DNA of 64,000 nucleotides from Candidatus Eiseniibacteriota bacterium. Lineage in GTDB: Bacteria > Eisenbacteria > RBG-16-71-46 > JABDJR01. Below, piece after piece: positions 18,059-28,886 of the stretch; within the stretch, counting starts at the first letter, position 1, and each line of letters opens with the position of its first letter. Made by a program: the position numbers and the translations under genes. The notes beneath the pieces are model-generated. The model was not told where the DNA came from. It ran no database searches and was given only the letters and a program-made list of their open reading frames with translations. The stretch lies in the NCBI GenBank assembly GCA_963783375.1, contig CAWANH010000029.1:1-64000 (forward strand), in the 5' to 3' direction.

Positions 18059-20587
18059 ATGGCGAGCCAGCCCTACATCCCCATCCGACCGCGCGATCCG
18101 GCCGAGCGCTACCGCTTCAAGTGCCGCCGGCTGGTGTGGCGGATGGTGCACGGCACCCGTGCCGCGCAGGTGGTGGAGCGCGAGCTAACCCTTCGGCTGG
18201 CCCAGACCCTTGCCGGTCTCCGCGCGGAGGAGCGCTACCGGAGGCTCGGCCACGTTCGGTTTGCCGACTTCTGCCTCGAGGTGTTGCAGCTCCATCCCCG
18301 CACCGCGCGTCGCCACGTGGCGCTCTGGGATGTTCTCTCACGTGTCCCTTCAGCGAGAACGGCGTTTCTTGCCGGCCGGGTGGACGTGAGCCGCATCCTG
18401 GCGTTGCGCACCGTCCTGACCGGGGCCACGGCCCCTGCTTGGCTTGCCCGGGCCCAGGGCGTGCCGGTGCGCGAGCTTCGGGAGTTGGTGAAGGCAGCGC
18501 GGTCCGGCCTGGAGGGGGATGGCGGGGAAAGTGGAGAACTGACTGGAGGCGAAGAGGAGAGGGGAAGCGGAGAGACAGGCCCGACCGGGGGGGTGACGGG
18601 TAACGGAGAGGTGGCGGGAAGCGGAGAGGGGACGAGGAGCAGCGAAGCGACGGGGAGCGGAACTGCGACGGCGGGCGAAGTTGGACATTCGAAGACATCG
18701 CCGGAACCGCCGCCGGTCCGGTTCACCGACCAGGATCTCGAAGAGCCGGAGCGGGAACGGATCACGTTCCTGGCCCCTCAAACCTCCGGCCTCGCCTTCG
18801 AGCACGCGCTCGAGACGGGTCGGCGGTTGCTCGGGTGGGATGCGCCCGCCGATGCCTGCCTGGATGCGATGCTGGCCGAAGCGGAGACTTCGGCGCCCTG
18901 GCTCGTGGGTGGGGTCGGCGATCCTCCCGGGGAGAACGAGGCTCCTGGGAGTGGGGGAGTGGGCGCGGCCGCGCCCGTCGATGACACGCACGGCCATGAA
19001 ACGCCGATGACCCGCGTAGGGGATGAGCCGCCGGCCACGCCGGGCTGGGCTCCCGGCGGGCGGTTGCCCTGGGCGGATCGTCCGTTCGTCTCCGCGAGGC
19101 GGTGGCGCGTGCTCCGGGGGCTGGAGGCTCCAGGGGTGCGGCGTCGGATGAACGGGGGTCCGGGCGCCTGGGATCCTTCCCGGCACCGCTACGACTACAA
19201 GCGCGCCGCCCACGCCTTCTCTAGCTTCCGGCGGGTGCTTGGGAAGGCGGAGCGGTTGGCGGCCGCCCGGCCGGATGACCCCCCGGTGACCGAGGCCCGG
19301 GCGCTTCTCGCTCGCTACCTGGAATTGGAGGCTCTGGGGCGGCCCCTCTTCGTGGCCCGGACGAGGCTCCTCTACCACCTGGACGTGCTGCACGCCGGCG
19401 CGCTCTTCGGGCTCGACACCACGGACGCCCTCGCGTCCCGGTTGCTCGGTCTTTCCGAGCGTGCCGCGCTCGAACACTACTGGGCGGGATGCCAGTTCCA
19501 GTTCGACCACACGATCGCCGACGCCTACATCCGCGGCGACATCGGCCTGAGCCATGTCGTCAACTGGAAGTTGCAGTCGGCGTCGACCGGGACGGGCTGG
19601 ATCCGGCGGGCCCGGTCGGTGACCTGCCGTCAGCTCCGGCGCGAAATGCAGTTCCTTCGCCGACTCAACGAGGTCCTGACCGCGGGACCCTTCGGGCCGC
19701 CGGAGCTGCTCCCGGATCCCGCGGTGGAGGCGGCCCTGCGGAAGCGACTCTTCAAGGCGGGATGGGGTCCCGGCAAGCTGGATCGGGAACTGGAGCAGCG
19801 TGGTCTCCTGGATCCCCCCGGTGCCTCCAAGGACCCCGCCGAGAACCCGGCGGTGATGGACCGGCTCGAAACGATGCTCGACATGGTGATCCTCTCGATA
19901 TGCCGGACCGTCTCGGACGACGACCCCGAAGTCCGATACCGGAAAACGTTGTCCACCCCGGGGCGCCACCACCGGGTGGTGATCTGGGCGCGACCGGAGA
20001 TCCGCGAGCGATGGGGACGAGCCTGCCGGGCGGTCCGTCGGGTGACCGGGGCCTGGCCCGAGTGGGCGGTGGCCGTTCTGGTCGCGCGGGTGGCGATGAA
20101 TGAGTGGGAGCGCCAGGATCCCGACCGCACCCCCACCGAACGGCGGATATTGGAGCGGGACGGCTACCGGTGCCAGGCTCCCGGATGCAGCAGCCGGAGC
20201 GGCCTGGAATCCCACCACATCCGGTTCCGCTCCCAGGGTGGGTCGAACACTCCCTCGAACCGGGTCACTCTGTGCCATGCCCATCATCACCACGCGATCC
20301 ACGCGGGCACGTTGAGGGTCAGCGGCCGCGCGCCCCATGCCCTCCTCTGGGAGTTCGGGTGCGCTCCCGGGGCCGGACCGCTCTGGGTCTACCGGGGCGA
20401 GCGCCTGGTACGAGGACCGGGGCGGGTCTCCCGGGGTCCGTCGAGGCGGGAGCCGGATCGGGCGGCCCGGCCGGGGGGACGGCCGGACCGCCGATCAGGC
20501 TTGGATCGAACCGCGACCGGTCAGGTTCCCACCTTGACCAGCCGGACCGCCGCGGACCGCCCCTCGGTCTGGATCCTGCAGAAGTAG
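18059..20587 (+). CDS. Large HNH endonuclease-domain protein (DUF222/13E12-like architecture)
   Basis: C-terminal ILERDGYRCQAPGC...SHHIRFRSQGGSN...NRVTLCHAHH; N-terminal YRRLGHVRFADFCLEVL helical region; 3' end overlaps the convergent cytochrome gene by 67 bp. Confidence 0.75.
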   Translation: MASQPYIPIRPRDPAERYRFKCRRLVWRMVHGTRAAQVVERELTLRLAQTLAGLRAEERYRRLGHVRFADFCLEVLQLHPRTARRHVALWDVLSRVPSARTAFLAGRVDVSRILALRTVLTGATAPAWLARAQGVPVRELRELVKAARSGLEGDGGESGELTGGEEERGSGETGPTGGVTGNGEVAGSGEGTRSSEATGSGTATAGEVGHSKTSPEPPPVRFTDQDLEEPERERITFLAPQTSGLAFEHALETGRRLLGWDAPADACLDAMLAEAETSAPWLVGGVGDPPGENEAPGSGGVGAAAPVDDTHGHETPMTRVGDEPPATPGWAPGGRLPWADRPFVSARRWRVLRGLEAPGVRRRMNGGPGAWDPSRHRYDYKRAAHAFSSFRRVLGKAERLAAARPDDPPVTEARALLARYLELEALGRPLFVARTRLLYHLDVLHAGALFGLDTTDALASRLLGLSERAALEHYWAGCQFQFDHTIADAYIRGDIGLSHVVNWKLQSASTGTGWIRRARSVTCRQLRREMQFLRRLNEVLTAGPFGPPELLPDPAVEAALRKRLFKAGWGPGKLDRELEQRGLLDPPGASKDPAENPAVMDRLETMLDMVILSICRTVSDDDPEVRYRKTLSTPGRHHRVVIWARPEIRERWGRACRAVRRVTGAWPEWAVAVLVARVAMNEWERQDPDRTPTERRILERDGYRCQAPGCSSRSGLESHHIRFRSQGGSNTPSNRVTLCHAHHHHAIHAGTLRVSGRAPHALLWEFGCAPGAGPLWVYRGERLVRGPGRVSRGPSRREPDRAARPGGRPDRRSGLDRTATGQVPTLTSRTAADRPSVWILQK

Positions 20588-22038
20588 ATCCCGGCCGGCA
20601 TCGCCCGGCCTCCCTCGTCGCGACCGTCCCACACCAGGGTGTGGTGGCCGGGGGTCTGGGCGCTCCGGGTGAGGACGCGCACCTCCCGCCCATTGGCGTC
20701 GTAGACGGCCAGGTGGATCGGGTCGTTGCCCAGGACCTCGTAGCTGATCTCCGTCCGGGCCCCGAAGGGGTTCGGGGAGGGCATGACTCGCGCGGTCACC
20801 CCATTCCCGGGAAGCTGATCGCCCACCCCGGTTACCACGAACCCGTGGGGTCCGGCTCCGGTCGGGGTGTAGCCGTGGCACACGTCGCAGCGACGCAGGG
20901 TGCCGGTCGCCCCCTGCAGCGCCACGGTCTGCCGGTTGTCCCGCTCCTCCCGTGAAGGGAGGATGGCGTGGGGGCTGTTGTGGCAGGTGGGACAGTACAG
21001 GTTTCCGTGGCCGTTGTTGGAATTCCGGTAGAGGGTGTTGGCGGCCTCGGCGTAGGTGGAGCCGTGGCAGGTCTCGCACCGGGGCTCGTCGAGCCACGGC
21101 CGGCGGCCGTCCTTGATCGATTCCGCCACGTCCCGCACCGACCCGTGGCAGTTCTGGCAGACCAGGTGGAAGTCGGTGGCCATGGTTCCGCGCAGGCACT
21201 GGGTGTTCGGCCCGGGATGACACTGGTAGCAGTTGTTGGTCTCCTCGGCGTGCTGGTCGTGCATGGCCTCGGACAGGCTGGGGAGGCCCGGGGTTCCCGG
21301 CGCCCCCAGGGCGTTGCTGGCGTGGCAGCTTGCGCAGAGGACCGGGGTGCTGGTGGCCAGATGGGTCCCATTCTCCTCGTCGTGAAGCCGGAGGATCGAG
21401 TGCTCGACGGTTTCTCCGGTCCGCGGATGGTGGCAGTTGGAGCACATCATTTCGGTGGAGATCGGGGCCACGATCTCCGTAGACGCCAGGAGCGCCTGGG
21501 AGGCGTCCCGGGCCTCGAGCTCCGCGAGCTGGAAGGGCTGCTTGTTCACCAGATCGCTGTCGGTGTATTCGGTGAGCGGAATCCCCTCGGCATGGAAATG
21601 ATCGGGGGCGGCGTCCATGGTGCCGGTGAGACCCCGTCCGGTGAGCCCGATGTTCGGAGGGATGGTCGTCCCGAAGATCTGGGAGGCGTAGGTCCAGAAG
21701 TCGGTCTTGCCCACCGAGTAGGTGTTGTCCTGGAACCGGTAGCTCACGGTGATGTCCGAGGTCACGACCTCGGGGAGGCGAGCCGGGTCCCCTCGGCGGA
21801 TCACCGTTGCCCAGAGAGTGTTGTAGGGGGGTAGAACCGTGAGGTCCTGGAACCGCGCGTTGGCGCAGTGCATCCCCAGGTCGTTCCAGCCGATCAGGAT
21901 GTAGTCGCCGGTGGCTGCGGTTGCGAGGGTGGGAGTGGGGGCGTTCTGAGCTCGGGACACGGGGATCGGGAGGGTCTGGAGCAGGAGAATCGCGAAGAGA
22001 GGCAGGAAGTAGCGGGCGAACGGGCTCGGGACACGCAT
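20521..22038 (-). CDS. Secreted multiheme cytochrome c (7 CxxCH) with C-terminal FlgD Ig-like domain
   Basis: GGAGA SD; signal peptide; WNDLGMHC; CSNCH, CASCH, CYQCH, CQNCH, CETCH, CPTCH, CDVCH; then PSPNPF...YDANGREVR...WDGRD...AGIYFCRI. Confidence 0.9.
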   Translation of the reverse strand: MRVPSPFARYFLPLFAILLLQTLPIPVSRAQNAPTPTLATAATGDYILIGWNDLGMHCANARFQDLTVLPPYNTLWATVIRRGDPARLPEVVTSDITVSYRFQDNTYSVGKTDFWTYASQIFGTTIPPNIGLTGRGLTGTMDAAPDHFHAEGIPLTEYTDSDLVNKQPFQLAELEARDASQALLASTEIVAPISTEMMCSNCHHPRTGETVEHSILRLHDEENGTHLATSTPVLCASCHASNALGAPGTPGLPSLSEAMHDQHAEETNNCYQCHPGPNTQCLRGTMATDFHLVCQNCHGSVRDVAESIKDGRRPWLDEPRCETCHGSTYAEAANTLYRNSNNGHGNLYCPTCHNSPHAILPSREERDNRQTVALQGATGTLRRCDVCHGYTPTGAGPHGFVVTGVGDQLPGNGVTARVMPSPNPFGARTEISYEVLGNDPIHLAVYDANGREVRVLTRSAQTPGHHTLVWDGRDEGGRAMPAGIYFCRIQTEGRSAAVRLVKVGT

Positions 22039-22194
22039 GGTTGTCTCCTCCATGAAGCGTCGACGGTCTGGCCCGCGGTCAATCCGCGGGCCCGGCTTGG
22101 AGGGAGTGCCCGTAACCCGCCAAGCGCGCTGAAGCAGCTGCCGATGAACAGACGCACGACCCTGAATTGAGTCACGGAAATTCGGCGACCGGCT

Positions 22195-22270
22195 TTCTTC
22201 AAGACCCGGGATTCTCCAAGACCCGGGATTCTTCAAGACCCTGGATTCTTCAAGAACCGGGGTTCTTCAA
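22195..22270. repeat. 17-bp tandem repeat, about 4.5 copies
   Basis: TTCTTCAAGACCCGGGA-like units starting at 22195, 22212, 22229, 22246 and 22263. Confidence 0.85.
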
Positions 22271-22359
22271 TGACCAGCACTCTTCAACAACTAGCCTGGG
22301 GGAGCGATCTGGACCGGAAGAAACAACTAACCGTAGGAACGGCTTGGGCGCCGGGTCAA

Positions 22360-22546
22360 TGACCCGGAACAAGATCACGGCGGGAGGTTTAGCAATCCGC
22401 TGGATCAGTGACCCGGAACAAGCTCATGGCGGGAGATTTGACAAGCCGCTGGATCAGTGACCCGGAACAAGATCACAGCGGGAGGTTTGACAAGCCGCTG
22501 GATCAGTGACCCGGAACAAGATCACAGCGGGAGGTTTGACAAGCCG
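22360..22546. repeat. 49-bp tandem repeat, about 3.8 copies
   Basis: TGACCCGGAACAAGATCACAGCGGGAGGTTTGACAAGCCGCTGGATCAG-like units at 22360, 22409, 22458 and 22507. Confidence 0.9.
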
Positions 22547-22647
22547 TCGCTTGCAGGATGGCGGGGGTACCCACGAAGGGATAGGCCGAGCTCCCGGTCA
22601 TCCAACGGAGGCTCGAGGAGCCGCCGCCGGCAGAGCCTGCCCGGTCA

Positions 22648-23331
22648 TCACGGCCCGGACTGCTTCTCCGGCGTCGGGTCCCCTTCGGTATCGCGCGGGG
22701 CGGCCCCCGCCTCGCGAACCAGGGTCTCGAGAACGGCATAGGGTTGGGCGCCCACCACCACCCGCCCGCCGGCGGTGTAGGTGGGGATGCCGGTAACCCC
22801 GGCGGCCACCGACTCCGCCCAGTCCCGGTCGATCGCCTTCTGGAAGGTGCGCTTCTCGATGACCTCCCTGGCCTCGGCTGGGTCCAGACCCACCGACCCG
22901 GCCAGCCCGGCCAGGACGTCCTCTTCGGCGATGTTCTTCCCGTCCACGAAGTAGGCGTGGAAGGCCGCGCGATTGAACTCGGGCCCCCTCCCCTGGGATT
23001 CGGCCCACTTGCCGACCTCCTGGGCCAGGCGGCTGTTGTAGGTCATGGTCCGCTCGGACATGGGGAGCCCTTCCTGGGCGGCGAGGCCGCGCAGCCGTTT
23101 CTGGCCGGCGCGGATCCGCGCTTCGGCGTCCGGACCGCCGCCGAAGAGATCCGTCAGGGACTGCCCCTTCATCGGCGTATCGGGATGGAGGGGGAAGTGG
23201 ACGTAACGAACCCGTACGTCGTACTCGCGGATGAGTTTCTCAACACGGACCGTGCCGAGGTAGCACCATGGTCAGACGTAGTCGGAGTAGACGACGAGTT
23301 CCACCGGCTCGTGGTTCGTCGGGACGGCCAT
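22648..23331 (-). CDS. DsbA/FrnE-family thiol oxidoreductase, selenoprotein (UPWC)
   Basis: GGAGG SD then MAVPTNHEPVELVVYSDYV-TGA-PWCYLG...HFPLHPDTP, in frame with the 22648-23172 ORF (TYNSRLAQ, GVTGIPTY, GAQPY). TGA at 23272-23274 occupies the first Cys of CPWC. Confidence 0.88.
23239..23259 (-). promoter_or_regulatory. Bacterial SECIS-like hairpin
   Basis: CUCGGCACG-GUC-CGUGUUGAG stem-loop starting 12 nt after the UGA, with G first in the apical loop. Confidence 0.7.
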
Positions 23332-23501
23332 GGAGACCTCCGGTCCGAGAAGAGCGATCAGGAGGAACGCCGCGCCTCCGGCCAGGGCGGGGCGCAGGTT
23401 TCCGGTGAGACGCATGGTGGCTCCGTTCGCTGGAGTTGGGTACTCCGGCGAGTATAGCAGCCCGGCCGGCCCGGCTCGCGCCCGCCTCTCCGGAGCTTCG
23501 T

Positions 23502-24377
23502 CTAGCCCGCGTCGATCCGCTCTACGCCGGAGTACACGTTGAACCTTCCGTCACGGAGAAAGCCCACCAGGGTCATCCCGAACTCCCGCGCGGTCTCCAC
23601 CGCCAGGCTGGTCGGGGCGCCCACCGCCGCCAGCACCGGGATGCCCGCGATCAACCCCTTCTGCACCAGCTCGAAGCTGGCCCGCCCGCTCACCAGGACT
23701 ACGCGCTCGGACGCCGGAAGCTCCCCGGCCAGGAGCAACGTCCCCACCATCTTGTCGAAGGCGTTGTGACGGCCCACGTCCTCCCGAGCCAGGAGCAGCT
23801 CGCCCGAGGCGTCGAAGAGGGCGGCGGCATGGAGCCCCCCGGTGCGATCGAACGCCCCCTGGGCCTCCCGGCACCGCTCCGGCAGCGTGTGGAGGACCCC
23901 GGCGGCGACCCGGAACCCGCCGGCGAGGGGGGACGGGCAGACCGCGCGGATGAGTTCCAGCGACGCCTTCCCGCAGATCCCGCAGCTCGAGGTGGTGTAG
24001 ACGTTCCGGGTGAAGCGGGCCGCGTCGAACTCCACGCCGGGCGCGAGGTGCGCGTTCACCACGTTCCTTCCCGCCCCGTTCCCGTCGCCGCAGGGGGCGA
24101 CCCGCTCGAGGTCTGCGGGTCCGGCGATCACCCCCTCGCTGAGGAGAAACCCCGCCGCCAGCTCCTCATCGTCCCCGGGGGTGCGCATGGTGACCGCCAC
24201 CGCGTGGCGGCGCTCCACCCCGTGCGGACCAAGCACGACCACCCGGACCTCCATCGGCTCCTCGACCGCCACCTGGTCCTCCTGGGGTCGCGCGCCGGTG
24301 CCGCCCACCGTGACCACCGTCACCGTTACCGAGGCCTCGGAGTGCGAGCGAACGCCTCGGCGGACGGGCGCGGTCAC
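23502..24377 (-). CDS. fdhD: Formate dehydrogenase accessory sulfurtransferase FdhD
   Basis: VEEPME; TMRTPGDDEELAAGFL; SSCGICG; TGGLHAA; REDVGRHNA; SGRASFELVQK. GTGA overlap with upstream stop. Confidence 0.95.
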   Translation of the reverse strand: MTAPVRRGVRSHSEASVTVTVVTVGGTGARPQEDQVAVEEPMEVRVVVLGPHGVERRHAVAVTMRTPGDDEELAAGFLLSEGVIAGPADLERVAPCGDGNGAGRNVVNAHLAPGVEFDAARFTRNVYTTSSCGICGKASLELIRAVCPSPLAGGFRVAAGVLHTLPERCREAQGAFDRTGGLHAAALFDASGELLLAREDVGRHNAFDKMVGTLLLAGELPASERVVLVSGRASFELVQKGLIAGIPVLAAVGAPTSLAVETAREFGMTLVGFLRDGRFNVYSGVERIDAG

Positions 24378-26569
24378 CGGGAACCCCTCCGGCCGTCGTC
24401 CCCCACGATCTCCACCACCGCGTCCCGATAGGCCGGGATCCCGCATACCGGGTCGGATACCCCGCGGGGGATCAGCACGTTGGCCTCGGGCCAGTGCAGC
24501 ATCACCGACCCGGGATGAAGCGCCCCCGCTCGCGCCCGTCCGCGAACCTCCCCGGCGTCCGAGCGCACCGTCACCCGGTCACCGTCGGCCAGCCCGAGCT
24601 GCGACATGTCCTCCGCCGCAAGCACCACCGCGTCGCGGACGTTACCGGTCAGCATGTCCCGCTCCGCGAACACCATGCTGTTGAACTGCTTTCCCCGGCG
24701 GGTGGTGAGGCGGAACCGTCCGGGGGGAACCTCCCGCTGGGGCGGCTCCACCACCGTGAACCGGGCCCGGCCGTCGGGAAGCCCGAAGTGTCCGCCTTCC
24801 CCGAGCCGCTCGCCGCCCCACTGGAACTGGTCCCCCTTCCGCGACAGGCGCTGGATGCCGTCGTAGGTCGGGATCACCCGGGCGATCTCCGCCCGGATGG
24901 CCGCGGTGGAGTCGAACTCGAGGTGTGCCGCCGCCTCGGGCTTGACCCGGCGGGCCAGCTCCACCAGCACCCGCCATTCATCCCGCGCCTCCGCCACCCG
25001 GGGGCCGGGTATCTCGGGGTTGTAGATCACCCGCCGCTCGGTCGACGTCTCGGTATTTCCCCCCGCCATCTCGTAGCGCGTGGTCGCCGGAAGCACCAGC
25101 ACGGTGTCCGCCGGCTCCACCAGCATCTGCGGGTTCATGACGATGTCGTGGTGCACCCGGAGGGGGATCCGGCCCAGCGCCCCGCGCACGTAATCCGGGT
25201 CGGGGAGGACCCCGAACAGGTTGCTCCCCACGCAGTAGAGCGCGTCCAGCTCCCCCTCGGCCGCCGCGTCCACCATCTCGGCCACGAAGCGGCCCCGCCA
25301 CGCCGGGATCGGGAATCCCCAGGTCGCCGCCAGCGCCCTCGCCCCGTCCTCGCCCACCGCGGCCCCGCCGGGGAACTGGTTGGGAACGCAGCCCATTTCC
25401 GCCCCCCCCTGGACCCCGGAGTGCCCGCGAATCGGCATCAGCCCGGTCCGGGGCCGTCCCACCATACCCCGGGCCAGGGCGAGGTTGGCGATGGCCTTGA
25501 CGTTCTGGATCCCGTGCCGGTGCATGGTGATGCCCATGGACCAAACGAAGATCGCGGTGCGGGCGCCGGCGTAGAGCCGGGCGAACTCGTGCATGCTCTC
25601 CCGCGAGGCCCCGGAGTGGCGCTCCAGCTCCTCGAAGCTCTGGCCGCCCAGCGCGCGCTCCAGCTCCTCCCACCCCGCGGTGTGGTTGGCCACGAAGCCG
25701 CGATCCACCGCGTCCTCGGCAATCAGGTACTTGAGCGCCCCGTTCAGGAACGCAATGTCGCCTCCCACCTGGACCGTGAAGTGCCGGTCGGCGATGGTGG
25801 TCCCGGCCAGCGCGGAGTCCACCGAGGAGGGGACCCAGTACCGCTCCATGCCCGGCTCCCGGAAGGGGTTCACCATGGCGATCCGGGTGCCCTGCTTCCG
25901 GGCCAGGTGGAGGTACTTCATCATCACCGGCTGGTTGTTGGCGGGGTCGCTCCCCAGGAACACCACCAGGTCGGAGCCGATCAGGTCCCGGTAGCTCAAG
26001 GTGGTGGCCGCGAACCCCACCGACTCCTTGAGCCCGGTGGTGGAGGGGGAGTGGCAGATACGGGCGGAGTTGTCCACGTGGTTGGTGCCCAGGAACCGCG
26101 CCGCTTTCTGGGCCGCGTAGTAGGTCTCGTTGGCGGTGCCGCGGGAGACCAGGTAGAAGGCCAGACGACGGGGATCGATCTCCCGCAACCGCGCGGCCGA
26201 AAGCTCCAGCGCCTCGTCCCAGGAGATCCGGCGGAAGCCCTTGTCGCCGCGGCGGCGGAGCATGGGGAAGGGGATCCGCCCCAGGCCCCGGAGTTCCCGC
26301 TCCTTCAGGCGGACGAGGCGCGCCGCGTCGCCCAGAACCGAGGTATCCAGGGCGGGCATGGTGTTCAGCCGGAGGAGGTTCAGGCGCACCCAGCACAGGT
26401 GCACCTCGCTCATGGTCCAGTCGCGGAGCCCGTTGGTGCCCAGAGCGCACCCGTCGCACACGCCGTCGGTGAGGATCCGCCAGGCGTAACCGGGACGGTC
26501 GCGGTTGTTCCAGAGCGCGCGGGCGATTTCCAGGTAGGGCCCGGTCCGCCGCCTCAGTGAATTACCCAC
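24374..26569 (-). CDS. FdhF/YdeP-family molybdopterin oxidoreductase
   Basis: CDGCALG; DNSARICHSPS; PIRGHSGVQG; LTTRRGKQFNS. Confidence 0.9.
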   Translation of the reverse strand: MGNSLRRRTGPYLEIARALWNNRDRPGYAWRILTDGVCDGCALGTNGLRDWTMSEVHLCWVRLNLLRLNTMPALDTSVLGDAARLVRLKERELRGLGRIPFPMLRRRGDKGFRRISWDEALELSAARLREIDPRRLAFYLVSRGTANETYYAAQKAARFLGTNHVDNSARICHSPSTTGLKESVGFAATTLSYRDLIGSDLVVFLGSDPANNQPVMMKYLHLARKQGTRIAMVNPFREPGMERYWVPSSVDSALAGTTIADRHFTVQVGGDIAFLNGALKYLIAEDAVDRGFVANHTAGWEELERALGGQSFEELERHSGASRESMHEFARLYAGARTAIFVWSMGITMHRHGIQNVKAIANLALARGMVGRPRTGLMPIRGHSGVQGGAEMGCVPNQFPGGAAVGEDGARALAATWGFPIPAWRGRFVAEMVDAAAEGELDALYCVGSNLFGVLPDPDYVRGALGRIPLRVHHDIVMNPQMLVEPADTVLVLPATTRYEMAGGNTETSTERRVIYNPEIPGPRVAEARDEWRVLVELARRVKPEAAAHLEFDSTAAIRAEIARVIPTYDGIQRLSRKGDQFQWGGERLGEGGHFGLPDGRARFTVVEPPQREVPPGRFRLTTRRGKQFNSMVFAERDMLTGNVRDAVVLAAEDMSQLGLADGDRVTVRSDAGEVRGRARAGALHPGSVMLHWPEANVLIPRGVSDPVCGIPAYRDAVVEIVGDDGRRGSR

Positions 26570-26581
26570 GCGCGAGTCGGG

Positions 26582-27649
26582 CTAGAGGAACCGGGTGAAG
26601 GTGACGTCCAGCTGCCGCCTCTGGGTCCGGGCGTTTCGCCACTGCACGAGGATCGGGCTCTGGTAGGTGCCCTCCACGATCGCCCCCGGGCCCCGTCCTT
26701 CCGCTTCGCTCACCACCAGGCTCACCGACCGCTTCATCCGCATGATCCGAGCCACCGGGAAGGCCAGGAACTTGTCCACCGCGCGCTCCAGGCTCGATCC
26801 GCTGATCCCCAGGGCGTCCATGACCTCGTTCAGCACCTGGACGAAGTCGTACTTCGCGTAGTTCAGCGTCTTCCCGGGAATGGCCCGCGGATCCAGGAGC
26901 ATGTTCCGCCCCTTCTCGGCCATGAACCGGAGCGGGTCCCTGAGCACCTCGGCGAAGTCGTGCCGCATGAGGAGGGTCTCGTACTCGTTTACGGTGAGCG
27001 CGGCGTTCCCCTCCCCGGGGGCCAGGGCGATGTCGATCCGCCCCCGGCCGATCTCGAGCTTCCGGACCAGGTGGCAGAGCTCCTCGTAGAGGCCGAACCG
27101 GGGGTCCTTCAGGTTCACCGAGTCGATGGGGTGGACGGAGGTCGGCACCTCCATCCGGATCCGCCCCACCGTTTCCTCGCGGTTGAACCCGATGATCGTG
27201 GTCCGCCGGCGGCGCTGGGCGCGCCCGTTCACACCGTCGAGATCGATGAAGTAGACCGGGGTGTCGGAGCGGTTGAGGTAGGTCACGCAGCTCCGGAGCC
27301 CGGACCCGATGAAGGTCAGGTGCGAGTCGCCGTTTCGCGGCTCCACCCGGCGCTGGGCCTCGGAGAGCTCGCTTCGCAGGTGGAGCTGATCGTGCTGGTA
27401 CTCGGCTCCCGGGGGGAAGAACTTCTGGAACGTCCCGATGAACTGGCCCAGGGACTCCCGGTCGTGATTCAGCCGGGCGCAGAAGCTCTGTTCCAGGTAT
27501 CCGGCAGTGGTGTGATGGGAGCAGTACACGGCTTTCCGGTAGCGCTGGAAGAACCCATCGAAGTGGGTAGCAAGACGCTGGCCGACGTCGATCACGTCGA
27601 AGCGCGCTTCCGGCCGGAGCTCGAGGCTGATCTCTGCGGGTGGCGACAT
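26582..27649 (-). CDS. Hypothetical protein with YjbQ/UPF0047-like motifs, possibly two copies of the fold
   Basis: SHHTTAG...EPRNGDSHL in the N-half; LTVNEYE...GTYQSPILVQW in the C-half. Confidence 0.55.
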   Translation of the reverse strand: MSPPAEISLELRPEARFDVIDVGQRLATHFDGFFQRYRKAVYCSHHTTAGYLEQSFCARLNHDRESLGQFIGTFQKFFPPGAEYQHDQLHLRSELSEAQRRVEPRNGDSHLTFIGSGLRSCVTYLNRSDTPVYFIDLDGVNGRAQRRRRTTIIGFNREETVGRIRMEVPTSVHPIDSVNLKDPRFGLYEELCHLVRKLEIGRGRIDIALAPGEGNAALTVNEYETLLMRHDFAEVLRDPLRFMAEKGRNMLLDPRAIPGKTLNYAKYDFVQVLNEVMDALGISGSSLERAVDKFLAFPVARIMRMKRSVSLVVSEAEGRGPGAIVEGTYQSPILVQWRNARTQRRQLDVTFTRFL

Positions 27650-27854
27650 TGAATGTGGGGTCTCCGGGGATGAAATTCTACGCTTTTTGTCGGATGGAGT
27701 CAATCCATCCTTGCCTCGACCCTCGGGACCCCGGAAGGGCGCCCCCCCGCCGCGTGGTCATCGCCGGCCGGGTCTGGCACAATCACGGTGGCCCCAGCCG
27801 CCGGATGCGCCCGGCAACCCGGCTATTCCCAATAGACTCAGCGAGGAGCTTTCC

Positions 27855-28886
27855 ATGCGCGCGGTGGTTGTTCATGAGCACGGCGGTCTCGATGCCCTTA
27901 CCATCGGGGAGCGCCCCGATCCCGAGCCGGCCCCGGGGGAAGTCCGGGTGCGGATTCGCGCCGCCGCCCTGAACCACCTCGATCTCTGGGTGCGGAGGGG
28001 GGTCCCCGGGGTGCGGTATCCGCTCCCCATCATCCCCGGTTGCGACGGGTCGGGAATCGTGGATCGGGTGGGGGAGGGGGTGACGGGGATCGAGGCGGGC
28101 TCGGCCTGCGTGCTGGCCCCCGGGGTCTCGTGCGGCCGGTGCGAGGCCTGCTCGCGGGGCGAGGACCATCTCTGCCGCTGGTACGGCATCCTCGGCGAGC
28201 ACCGGGACGGCGCCTGCGCCGATTTCATCACCGTTCCCGCCCGGAACATCCTCCCCAAGCCCGAGAATCTCTCCTTCGAGGACGCGGCGGCCTTCGGGTT
28301 GTCGTTCCTCACCGCCTGGCACATGGTTTTCGAGCGCGCGCGGCTCCGCCCCGGCGAGACCGTGCTCGTACACGCCGCCGGGAGCGGCGTCTCCACCGCG
28401 GCCATCCAGATGGCCGATTTTCTCGGCGCCCGGATCATCGCCACCGCCGGGAGTGAAGAGAAGCTCTCCCGGGCCCGGGACCTGGGCGCGACCGAGACCA
28501 TCAACTACCGCACCGCAGACTTCGCCGACGAGGTCCGCCGCTTCACCGGGAAACGCGGGGTGGACGTGATCCTGGACCACGTGGGCCGCGACACCTGGGA
28601 GAGGAACATTCGAAGTCTGGTCAAGGGCGGCCGCCTGGTGATCTGCGGCAACACCAGCGGGCGCGAGGCAGTGACCTCCCTCCCGCACGTGTTCTTCAAG
28701 AGCCTCTCCCTGCTCGGTTCCACCATGGGTTCCCGGGCCGAGCTCTACGACATCATCCGGCTCATCGAACGGGAGGTTCTCACCCCGGTGGTGGACCGGG
28801 TGCTCCCGATGTCCGATATCGCCGAGGCCCACCGGGTGCTGGAAGACCGCGAGGCCTTCGGCAAGGTGGTGGTCACCCCGTGGTAG
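27855..28886 (+). CDS. Zinc-binding alcohol dehydrogenase / quinone oxidoreductase (MDR family)
   Basis: AGGAG SD; ALNHLD; PGCDGSG; CGRCEAC...C; AAGSGV; FGKVVV. Confidence 0.92.
   Translation: MRAVVVHEHGGLDALTIGERPDPEPAPGEVRVRIRAAALNHLDLWVRRGVPGVRYPLPIIPGCDGSGIVDRVGEGVTGIEAGSACVLAPGVSCGRCEACSRGEDHLCRWYGILGEHRDGACADFITVPARNILPKPENLSFEDAAAFGLSFLTAWHMVFERARLRPGETVLVHAAGSGVSTAAIQMADFLGARIIATAGSEEKLSRARDLGATETINYRTADFADEVRRFTGKRGVDVILDHVGRDTWERNIRSLVKGGRLVICGNTSGREAVTSLPHVFFKSLSLLGSTMGSRAELYDIIRLIEREVLTPVVDRVLPMSDIAEAHRVLEDREAFGKVVVTPW

Follow-up and report, generated by a model that had tools for sequence, protein, structure and literature searches.

The DNA analysed here, a stretch of 64,000 nt from a Candidatus Eiseniibacteriota bacterium (the window), carries on its reverse strand one gene (23415-22648, −) that very likely encodes a selenocysteine (Sec)-containing DsbA-like protein (PF01323, UxxC), a FrnE-type thioredoxin-fold protein whose in-frame UGA would be read as Sec. 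Taken as a whole, the reading that we prefer, and that we regard as moderately probable, is that of a Sec-containing FrnE-like protein predicted to be exported and to serve, beyond the cytoplasm, as a disulfide reductase/isomerase that DsbD would recharge. The kind of selenoprotein is already known, and the export signal is its only unusual part.

Gene model, selenocysteine machinery and neighbourhood

The 227-residue frame from 23331 to 22648 (−) contains one internal TGA (codon 20, YSDYV-*-PWC; 23274-23272), and the list of open reading frames opens the same frame only at 23172, giving 174 aa. A sequence-only reading of this DNA had pointed to the in-frame TGA in YSDYV-U-PWC and to the late opening of the ORF track, both of which can be seen in the sequence, and had proposed a 227-aa protein beginning at an ATG at 23331 preceded by a Shine-Dalgarno (SD) motif. 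This motif is present (GGAGG, 5 nt upstream), but the likelier start lies elsewhere: the frame continues past 23331, another SD-preceded ATG lies 28 codons upstream of it at 23415, and the sequence indicates that the gene probably begins there, which makes a protein of 255 aa with a predicted signal peptide more probable than one of 227 aa. A second start at Met29 (ATG 23331), whose SD motif and Met are kept in three of the four genomes of the genus, is possible. The features of the gene and its neighbours in the window are the following.

22648-23415 (−): full gene as proposed, 255 aa, with residue 48 as Sec; its stop codon is the TGA at 22650-22648
23421-23424 (−): Shine-Dalgarno-like GGAG in the sequence, 5 nt before the ATG at 23415
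23326-23415 (−): predicted cleavable signal peptide, residues 1-30, by hand rules
23329-23341 (−): internal GGAGG and ATG 23331 (Met29), possible second start
23263-23274 (−): active site U48-P-W-C51 (TGA 23274-23272, TGC 23265-23263)
23239-23259 (−): in-gene SECIS-like hairpin with an 8-bp stem and the loop GGUCC (23251-23247), which starts 20 nt after the UGA
22651-23325 (−): mature domain as predicted, a thioredoxin fold that carries the FrnE-type helical insertion (AlphaFold2, Foldseek)
23502-26569 (−): fdhD and a molybdopterin oxidoreductase of the FdhF/YdeP family (TIGR01701), both on the strand of the gene and immediately upstream of it
20521-22236 (−): multi-haem cytochrome c whose C-terminal domain is FlgD-Ig-like; lies downstream of the gene, shares its strand and is kept in the genus

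As had been anticipated, current annotation truncates the protein, since a public protein collection stores the gene as two pieces of 47 aa (from 23415) and 174 aa (from 23172). Contigs of two public runs (X1 and X2, of one study and possibly from the source sample) span the TGA with no differing letter, while record 20 of contig X4, which spans it with one differing letter, was left out of this count. Because the X1 and X2 contigs are identical here and the TGA recurs in 14 genomes of the class, a sequencing error is unlikely. A general recoding of UGA in this genome was ruled out, as long coding-like ORFs end most often in TGA (918 of 1391). A promoter and terminator scan of 22100-23600 returned no promoter-like and one terminator-like site, no more than in shuffled sequences, and Rfam gave no match at gathering score in 20000-28000.

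The genome (97% complete) encodes SelA (551 bits), SelB with its winged-helix domains (328 bits), SelD (391 bits) and a tRNA-Sec (68.5 bits), all above the respective cut-offs, in agreement with the earlier proposal that the organism uses Sec, and its selD itself contains an in-frame TGA. Likewise, selA scored above cut-off in 24 of the 25 relatives tested, including 11 of 12 other carriers of the TGA form; in the twelfth (75% complete) it was present only as a fragment at a contig end. With this machinery, SelB carrying Sec-tRNA would almost certainly bind the loop of the hairpin and decode the UGA, by analogy with the established bacterial pathway.

A rough genome-wide scan for other genes with in-frame TGA codons missed both this gene and selD, and its list is a lower bound. 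When 11 picked genes were scanned against profiles, four passed an NCBIfam cut-off (TUGYCR redoxin, UshA-like PCGU, SelW-like and MsrA), six matched below it and one matched nothing. The loci with in-frame TGA (L135-L144) comprise a thioredoxin-TPR protein, the TUGYCR redoxin, a BCP-type peroxiredoxin, three UshA-like proteins (one also on contig C25), the SelW-like protein, MsrA, a zinc-ribbon DG-like protein and a deiodinase-like stretch whose start is not evident, and six of them have, by eye, signal-like N-termini. A further locus with an in-frame TGA (L145, G000:C28:2010871, −) shows, 20 nt past this codon, a stem of 7 bp closing a GGUC loop; its product has no NCBIfam or Pfam match, and it is a possible uncatalogued selenoprotein.

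The order fdhF/ydeP-like gene, fdhD, Sec-FrnE-like gene and multi-haem cytochrome gene is kept only in the four genomes of the genus. Since ten other carriers share none of these neighbours within about 1.5 kb, no functional link to them is claimed. Between the Sec-FrnE-like and cytochrome genes lie two tandem arrays (22195-22287 and 22349-22544) of about five to six units of 17 nt and four units of 49 nt, respectively, which a short-word search found nowhere else in the genome and which have no Rfam match. Further upstream, a probably false ARAGORN call of a tRNA-Gly (23834-23930, −) falls within the coding sequence of fdhD; contig C22 has a normal tRNA-Gly(TCC). An 842-aa protein (18059-20587, +) whose C-terminal part weakly resembles nuclease models of the IscB/HNH type (43.5 bits, cut-off 175) is probably an HNH-domain protein and not IscB, and a 373-aa ORF (26582-27703, −) has no Pfam or NCBIfam match.

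TGA/Cys alternation and the SECIS-like hairpin

At the position of the UGA codon, 96 homologous loci have TGA (44), TGC (35) or TGT (17). After three distant rows and one duplicate had been dropped, 92 genome loci remained (49 with Cys and 43 with TGA, this gene being one of the latter), to which a metagenome set added the best 80 of 544 loci (37 TGA, 43 Cys; one repeats L032). The 172 loci counted in total, from several phyla, thus divide into 80 with TGA and 92 with Cys, and the codon is never TAA or TAG. The alignment of TGA with Cys in homologues, which had been suggested as a check, was therefore found, and the tree requires at least five changes between Sec and Cys. Among 206 genomes of the class, 16 have a match and 14 of these, including this genome, carry the TGA form. 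Of the best 120 listed protein matches, 31 begin past the active site.

The hairpin (23259-23239) begins 12 nt past the TGA, and when folded alone it forms the 9 bp with a GUC loop that had been described from the sequence, at −10.2 kcal/mol (z −3.7; none of 200 shuffles was as stable). The minimum-energy fold of the 60 nt from the UGA, in contrast to that of the isolated hairpin, differs from it and is no more stable than shuffles (z −0.26). What is conserved among homologues is a stem of 8 bp and a loop of 5 nt, invariably with G as second base, and a loop G, here at this second base, also belongs to the consensus bacterial SECIS in the legend of Fig. 2 of PMC13188914. The values given in the accessible text of the same paper are a loop of 3-9 nt, a stem of 4-16 bp, a G in the first two loop positions, a spacing of 16-37 nt and an energy of at most −7.5 kcal/mol (PMC13188914), and the hairpin lies within all of them, with a stem of 8-9 bp, the loop GGUCC or GUC, a spacing of 20-21 nt and −10.2 kcal/mol.

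A scan with generic bSECIS rules did not discriminate between the two forms of the gene (32 of 43 TGA loci passed, and 31 of 49 Cys loci), and only a fixed stem register, taken from this gene, separates them. In this register at least seven of the eight pairs form at 41 of 43 TGA loci and at none of the 49 Cys loci of the genome set, and at 35 of 37 TGA loci and none of the 43 Cys loci of the metagenome set, which was fetched once the register had been fixed. Across both sets the hairpin therefore accompanies the TGA (76 of 80 loci compared with 0 of 92), which supports the in-gene SECIS of the sequence-only reading. Moreover, synonymous recoding of this gene produced eight pairs in only 0.4% of 5000 trials, recoding across loci left on average 4.3 pairs where 7.5 are observed (median p 0.002), and 93.6% of cells pair in the fixed register, compared with 22-50% in slid ones. 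Two-sided changes occur in 19 cells, at the closing pair and at two positions further inside the stem, a number reached by none of 500 shuffles; the number of pairs with a two-sided change is three, which among rows related to one another is not above shuffles (250 of 500). Two loci with a Cys codon (L086 and L089) have a decayed stem of six pairs, and a further Cys-codon homologue (L158) also has a partly decayed SECIS stem. To judge from their sequences, these partly decayed stems suggest a recent change from Sec to Cys.

Protein fold and predicted export

The read-through protein matches the DSBA domain profile PF01323 with 136.3 bits (cut-off 25.6) over profile positions 2-188 of 191; a scan against NCBIfam profiles gave no family above cut-off. 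Its best relative of solved structure is Deinococcus radiodurans FrnE (drFrnE; E 9e-26), in which the first Cys of CPWC aligns to the TGA, and the C/U, P, W and C of the active site are invariant across 88 aligned rows. AlphaFold2 on the 88-row alignment yielded a model with a pLDDT of 92.9 (a single-sequence model with a pLDDT of 45 was discarded), for which the best Foldseek matches were drFrnE (5cp1; E 1.7e-15, TM 0.81) and SCO1869 (3gl5; rmsd 1.9 Å), while periplasmic DsbAs ranked far lower (E 1e-5 compared with 1e-15). The CP(W/F)C motif of the FrnE subfamily (cd03024) is found here as UPWC in a DsbA-like domain of FrnE fold, and Ile210-Pro211 presumably occupies the usual cis-Pro loop position of the thioredoxin fold. 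The C-terminal CxxxxC of many FrnEs is absent, there being no Cys after residue 51. Assignment to the Rcas_1661 (seleno)lipoprotein family (NF041057) was rejected, with 39.2 bits against a cut-off of 190 and no Cys before residue 48. Also excluded from the family were long multi-domain matches (29 of 150 listed; three were scanned), which are tandem Thioredoxin_4/DsbA proteins. Five such proteins (P0130, P0134, P0138, P0157 and P0181; 618-1163 aa) have several tandem DsbA/Thioredoxin_4 domains, each with CxxC, and some of them have signal-like starts.

Judged by hand rules, as were all signal peptides in this work, the N-terminus has a signal-peptide-like extension, unlike the FrnE subfamily, for which a cytoplasmic location and no signal peptide are predicted. 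The first 30 residues from 23415 comprise two Arg, a hydrophobic core with a best 12-residue Kyte-Doolittle mean of 2.41, and then Pro and S-M-A at −3 to −1, with no lipobox Cys. From this anatomy the protein would, with high probability, be secreted and cleaved after Ala30, or be anchored in the membrane if it stays uncleaved. At each of the 13 TGA loci of the phylum, an SD-preceded ATG lies 36-60 codons ahead of the UGA and the extension has a hydrophobic core of 1.89-2.82, though these extensions share little sequence. A further locus examined afterwards (in genome G201) also has such an extension, so that within the 206 genomes of the class it is present in all 14 TGA orthologues. Arg-Arg occurs in the signal-peptide N-region of three loci (L024, L025 and L030), which raises the possibility of Tat export in some members, and is absent from this gene.

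With a threshold of 1.89, the lowest in-phylum value and set afterwards, none of the 79 rows outside the phylum reaches a comparable core in an open frame (maximum 1.86) and two of the 79 reach it only across stop codons, while 1 of 2782 off-frame control windows of this genome does so. In the metagenome set (the best 80 of 544 loci) the extension was found at two of 80 loci, both of them TGA. In the genome set all 30 TGA loci outside the phylum are without a hydrophobic extension, and in the metagenome set so are 35 of the 37 TGA loci. P0008, which heads the 120 protein matches listed, is a Cys form that combines signal peptide and domain in a single ORF of 236 aa; 88 of these 120 are full-length with no signal, and no signal peptide was found in the 46 full-length single-domain matches that were among the 150 cluster representatives listed. 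In the tree (FastTree, 171 rows, unrooted) a branch with support 99 separates the 15 signal-bearing rows from all others. Within the samples examined, the predicted signal-peptide variant is thus confined to one small branch; the unrooted tree is compatible with either gain or loss of the signal peptide.

Redox partners, alternative readings and known systems

This 97%-complete genome has no match to DsbB or VKOR, the partners expected of a classical periplasmic DsbA; VKOR has no match in any of the four genomes of the genus, nor DsbB in any of the 14 carrier genomes. DsbD, which is common in bacteria, has a match in 14 of 14 carrier genomes and in 10 of 14 control genomes, and the one DsbD of this genome, in the region of C28:340134, adjoins a TlpA-like redoxin; since it is also found in 10 of the controls, its presence says little about the partner. 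In the accessible text of PMC8945050, drFrnE is described as a disulfide reductase of the cytoplasm that is also active as an isomerase. Given export, we consider it likely, as the weakest inference of our reading, that the selenolate of Sec48 would attack a substrate disulfide or an oxidised thiol, Cys51 would resolve the mixed bond and the membrane protein DsbD would re-reduce the Se-S bond.

Because DsbB and VKOR were not found, DsbD is present and drFrnE is described as a reductase, a reductase/isomerase is our first choice and an oxidase its main rival. According to the latter, the exported Sec protein would form disulfides in place of DsbA and be reoxidised by VKOR, small molecules or another partner. 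Apart from it no PF01323 match was found in the genome, nor any match to PF13462, the genome encodes exported proteins such as that of the adjoining multi-haem cytochrome, and VKOR is found in 6 of 13 carrier relatives, all of which speak for a disulfide-forming role. However, neither this genome nor the three others of the genus has a DsbB or VKOR match, both sequence and fold are nearest to FrnE with periplasmic DsbAs far behind, and an Se-S bond is more reducing than its S-S equivalent; we consider an oxidase unlikely.

A somewhat smaller probability is assigned to a protein that is cytoplasmic and starts at ATG 23331, or to two starts that would give an exported and a cytoplasmic form. The GGAGG 5 nt before this ATG favours such a start, and so does the Pro-Glu-x-Ser-Met kept in three of the four genomes of the genus, where the remaining extension diverges; in addition, the start codon of most relatives outside the phylum lies some 14 codons ahead of the site, and a cytoplasmic location is predicted for FrnE proteins in the accessible text of PMC8945050. 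Yet the codons CCG-GAG for Pro-Glu yield GGAG by coding alone, most other carriers keep the hydrophobic extension with no SD-preceded Met at this position, P0008 has no such internal Met, and the gene caller of the public collection picked 23415 for the upstream piece. Highly improbable, finally, is a TGA that is a true stop in a pseudogene, a split gene or a misassembly. Gene callers do treat it as a stop, but across several phyla the codon is TGA at 80 of 172 loci, TGY at the rest and never TAA or TAG, the contigs of the two public runs are identical across it, and in the 174-aa piece both the CxxC site and the initial strands of the fold would be missing.

The exported, DsbD-recharged reductase/isomerase that we prefer may be placed, tentatively and with more doubt than confidence, in a wider setting, in which one lineage would have moved a normally cytoplasmic Sec-FrnE into the envelope, where it would join other exported selenoproteins (the thioredoxin-TPR protein, the TUGYCR redoxin, the three UshA-like proteins and MsrA) in a DsbD-fed redox network of the envelope that is based on selenium and operates with neither DsbB nor VKOR; the two starts of the gene in this genus may give both an exported and a cytoplasmic enzyme. 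If export is real, a reductase family described as cytoplasmic would have been redeployed outside the cytoplasm with Sec, and the protein would provide a small, well-folded test case for disulfide handling in an envelope that lacks DsbB and VKOR. The practical gain is a corrected gene model in place of the two database fragments.

Sec-containing DsbA-like families had been named in the sequence-only reading as already reported, and one (COG2761, UxxC) has indeed been catalogued since 2005, as 'DsbA-like protein' (PMC1088965), 'DsbA 1' (PMC2398784) and 'DsbA-like protein form 1', PF01323 (PMC13188914), with DsbA-like UxxC selenoproteins also listed in PMC1794560 and PMC9312934, as far as the accessible parts of these five papers extend. 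The gene described here resembles this family in its PF01323 domain, in UxxC with the TGA at the first Cys, in the bacterial SECIS inside the gene and in the existence of Cys homologues, and differs from it by its predicted signal peptide, export being unmentioned for the family in the accessible parts of these sources. For an assignment to COG2761 the match to drFrnE is indirect support; the type sequence listed for the family is NIP15863.1. No description of an exported Sec-FrnE was found in the literature searched, which included few subscription papers, in part as accessible text only, and whose supplements may list signal-bearing members.

With the FrnE subfamily (cd03024; drFrnE, 5cp1, and Streptomyces coelicolor SCO1869, 3gl5) the protein shares the SDxx[C/U]PWC motif, and its nearest matches in both sequence and fold belong there (29% identity when aligned by structure, TM 0.81). 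In contrast to that subfamily, it would have Sec for the first Cys and a signal peptide instead of a cytoplasmic location, and it lacks the C-terminal CxxxxC tail, which according to the accessible text of PMC8945050 some FrnEs also lack. Periplasmic DsbA/BdbD oxidases are similar in their thioredoxin fold with helical insertion and in predicted export; they differ in that their fold match is much weaker and that this genome has no DsbB or VKOR match. Selenoproteins bearing signal peptides are known from other families, such as SaoB/SaoX (bioRxiv 10.1101/2022.07.06.499078, in its accessible part), and together with NF041057 these different families provide a precedent for Sec proteins with signal peptides.
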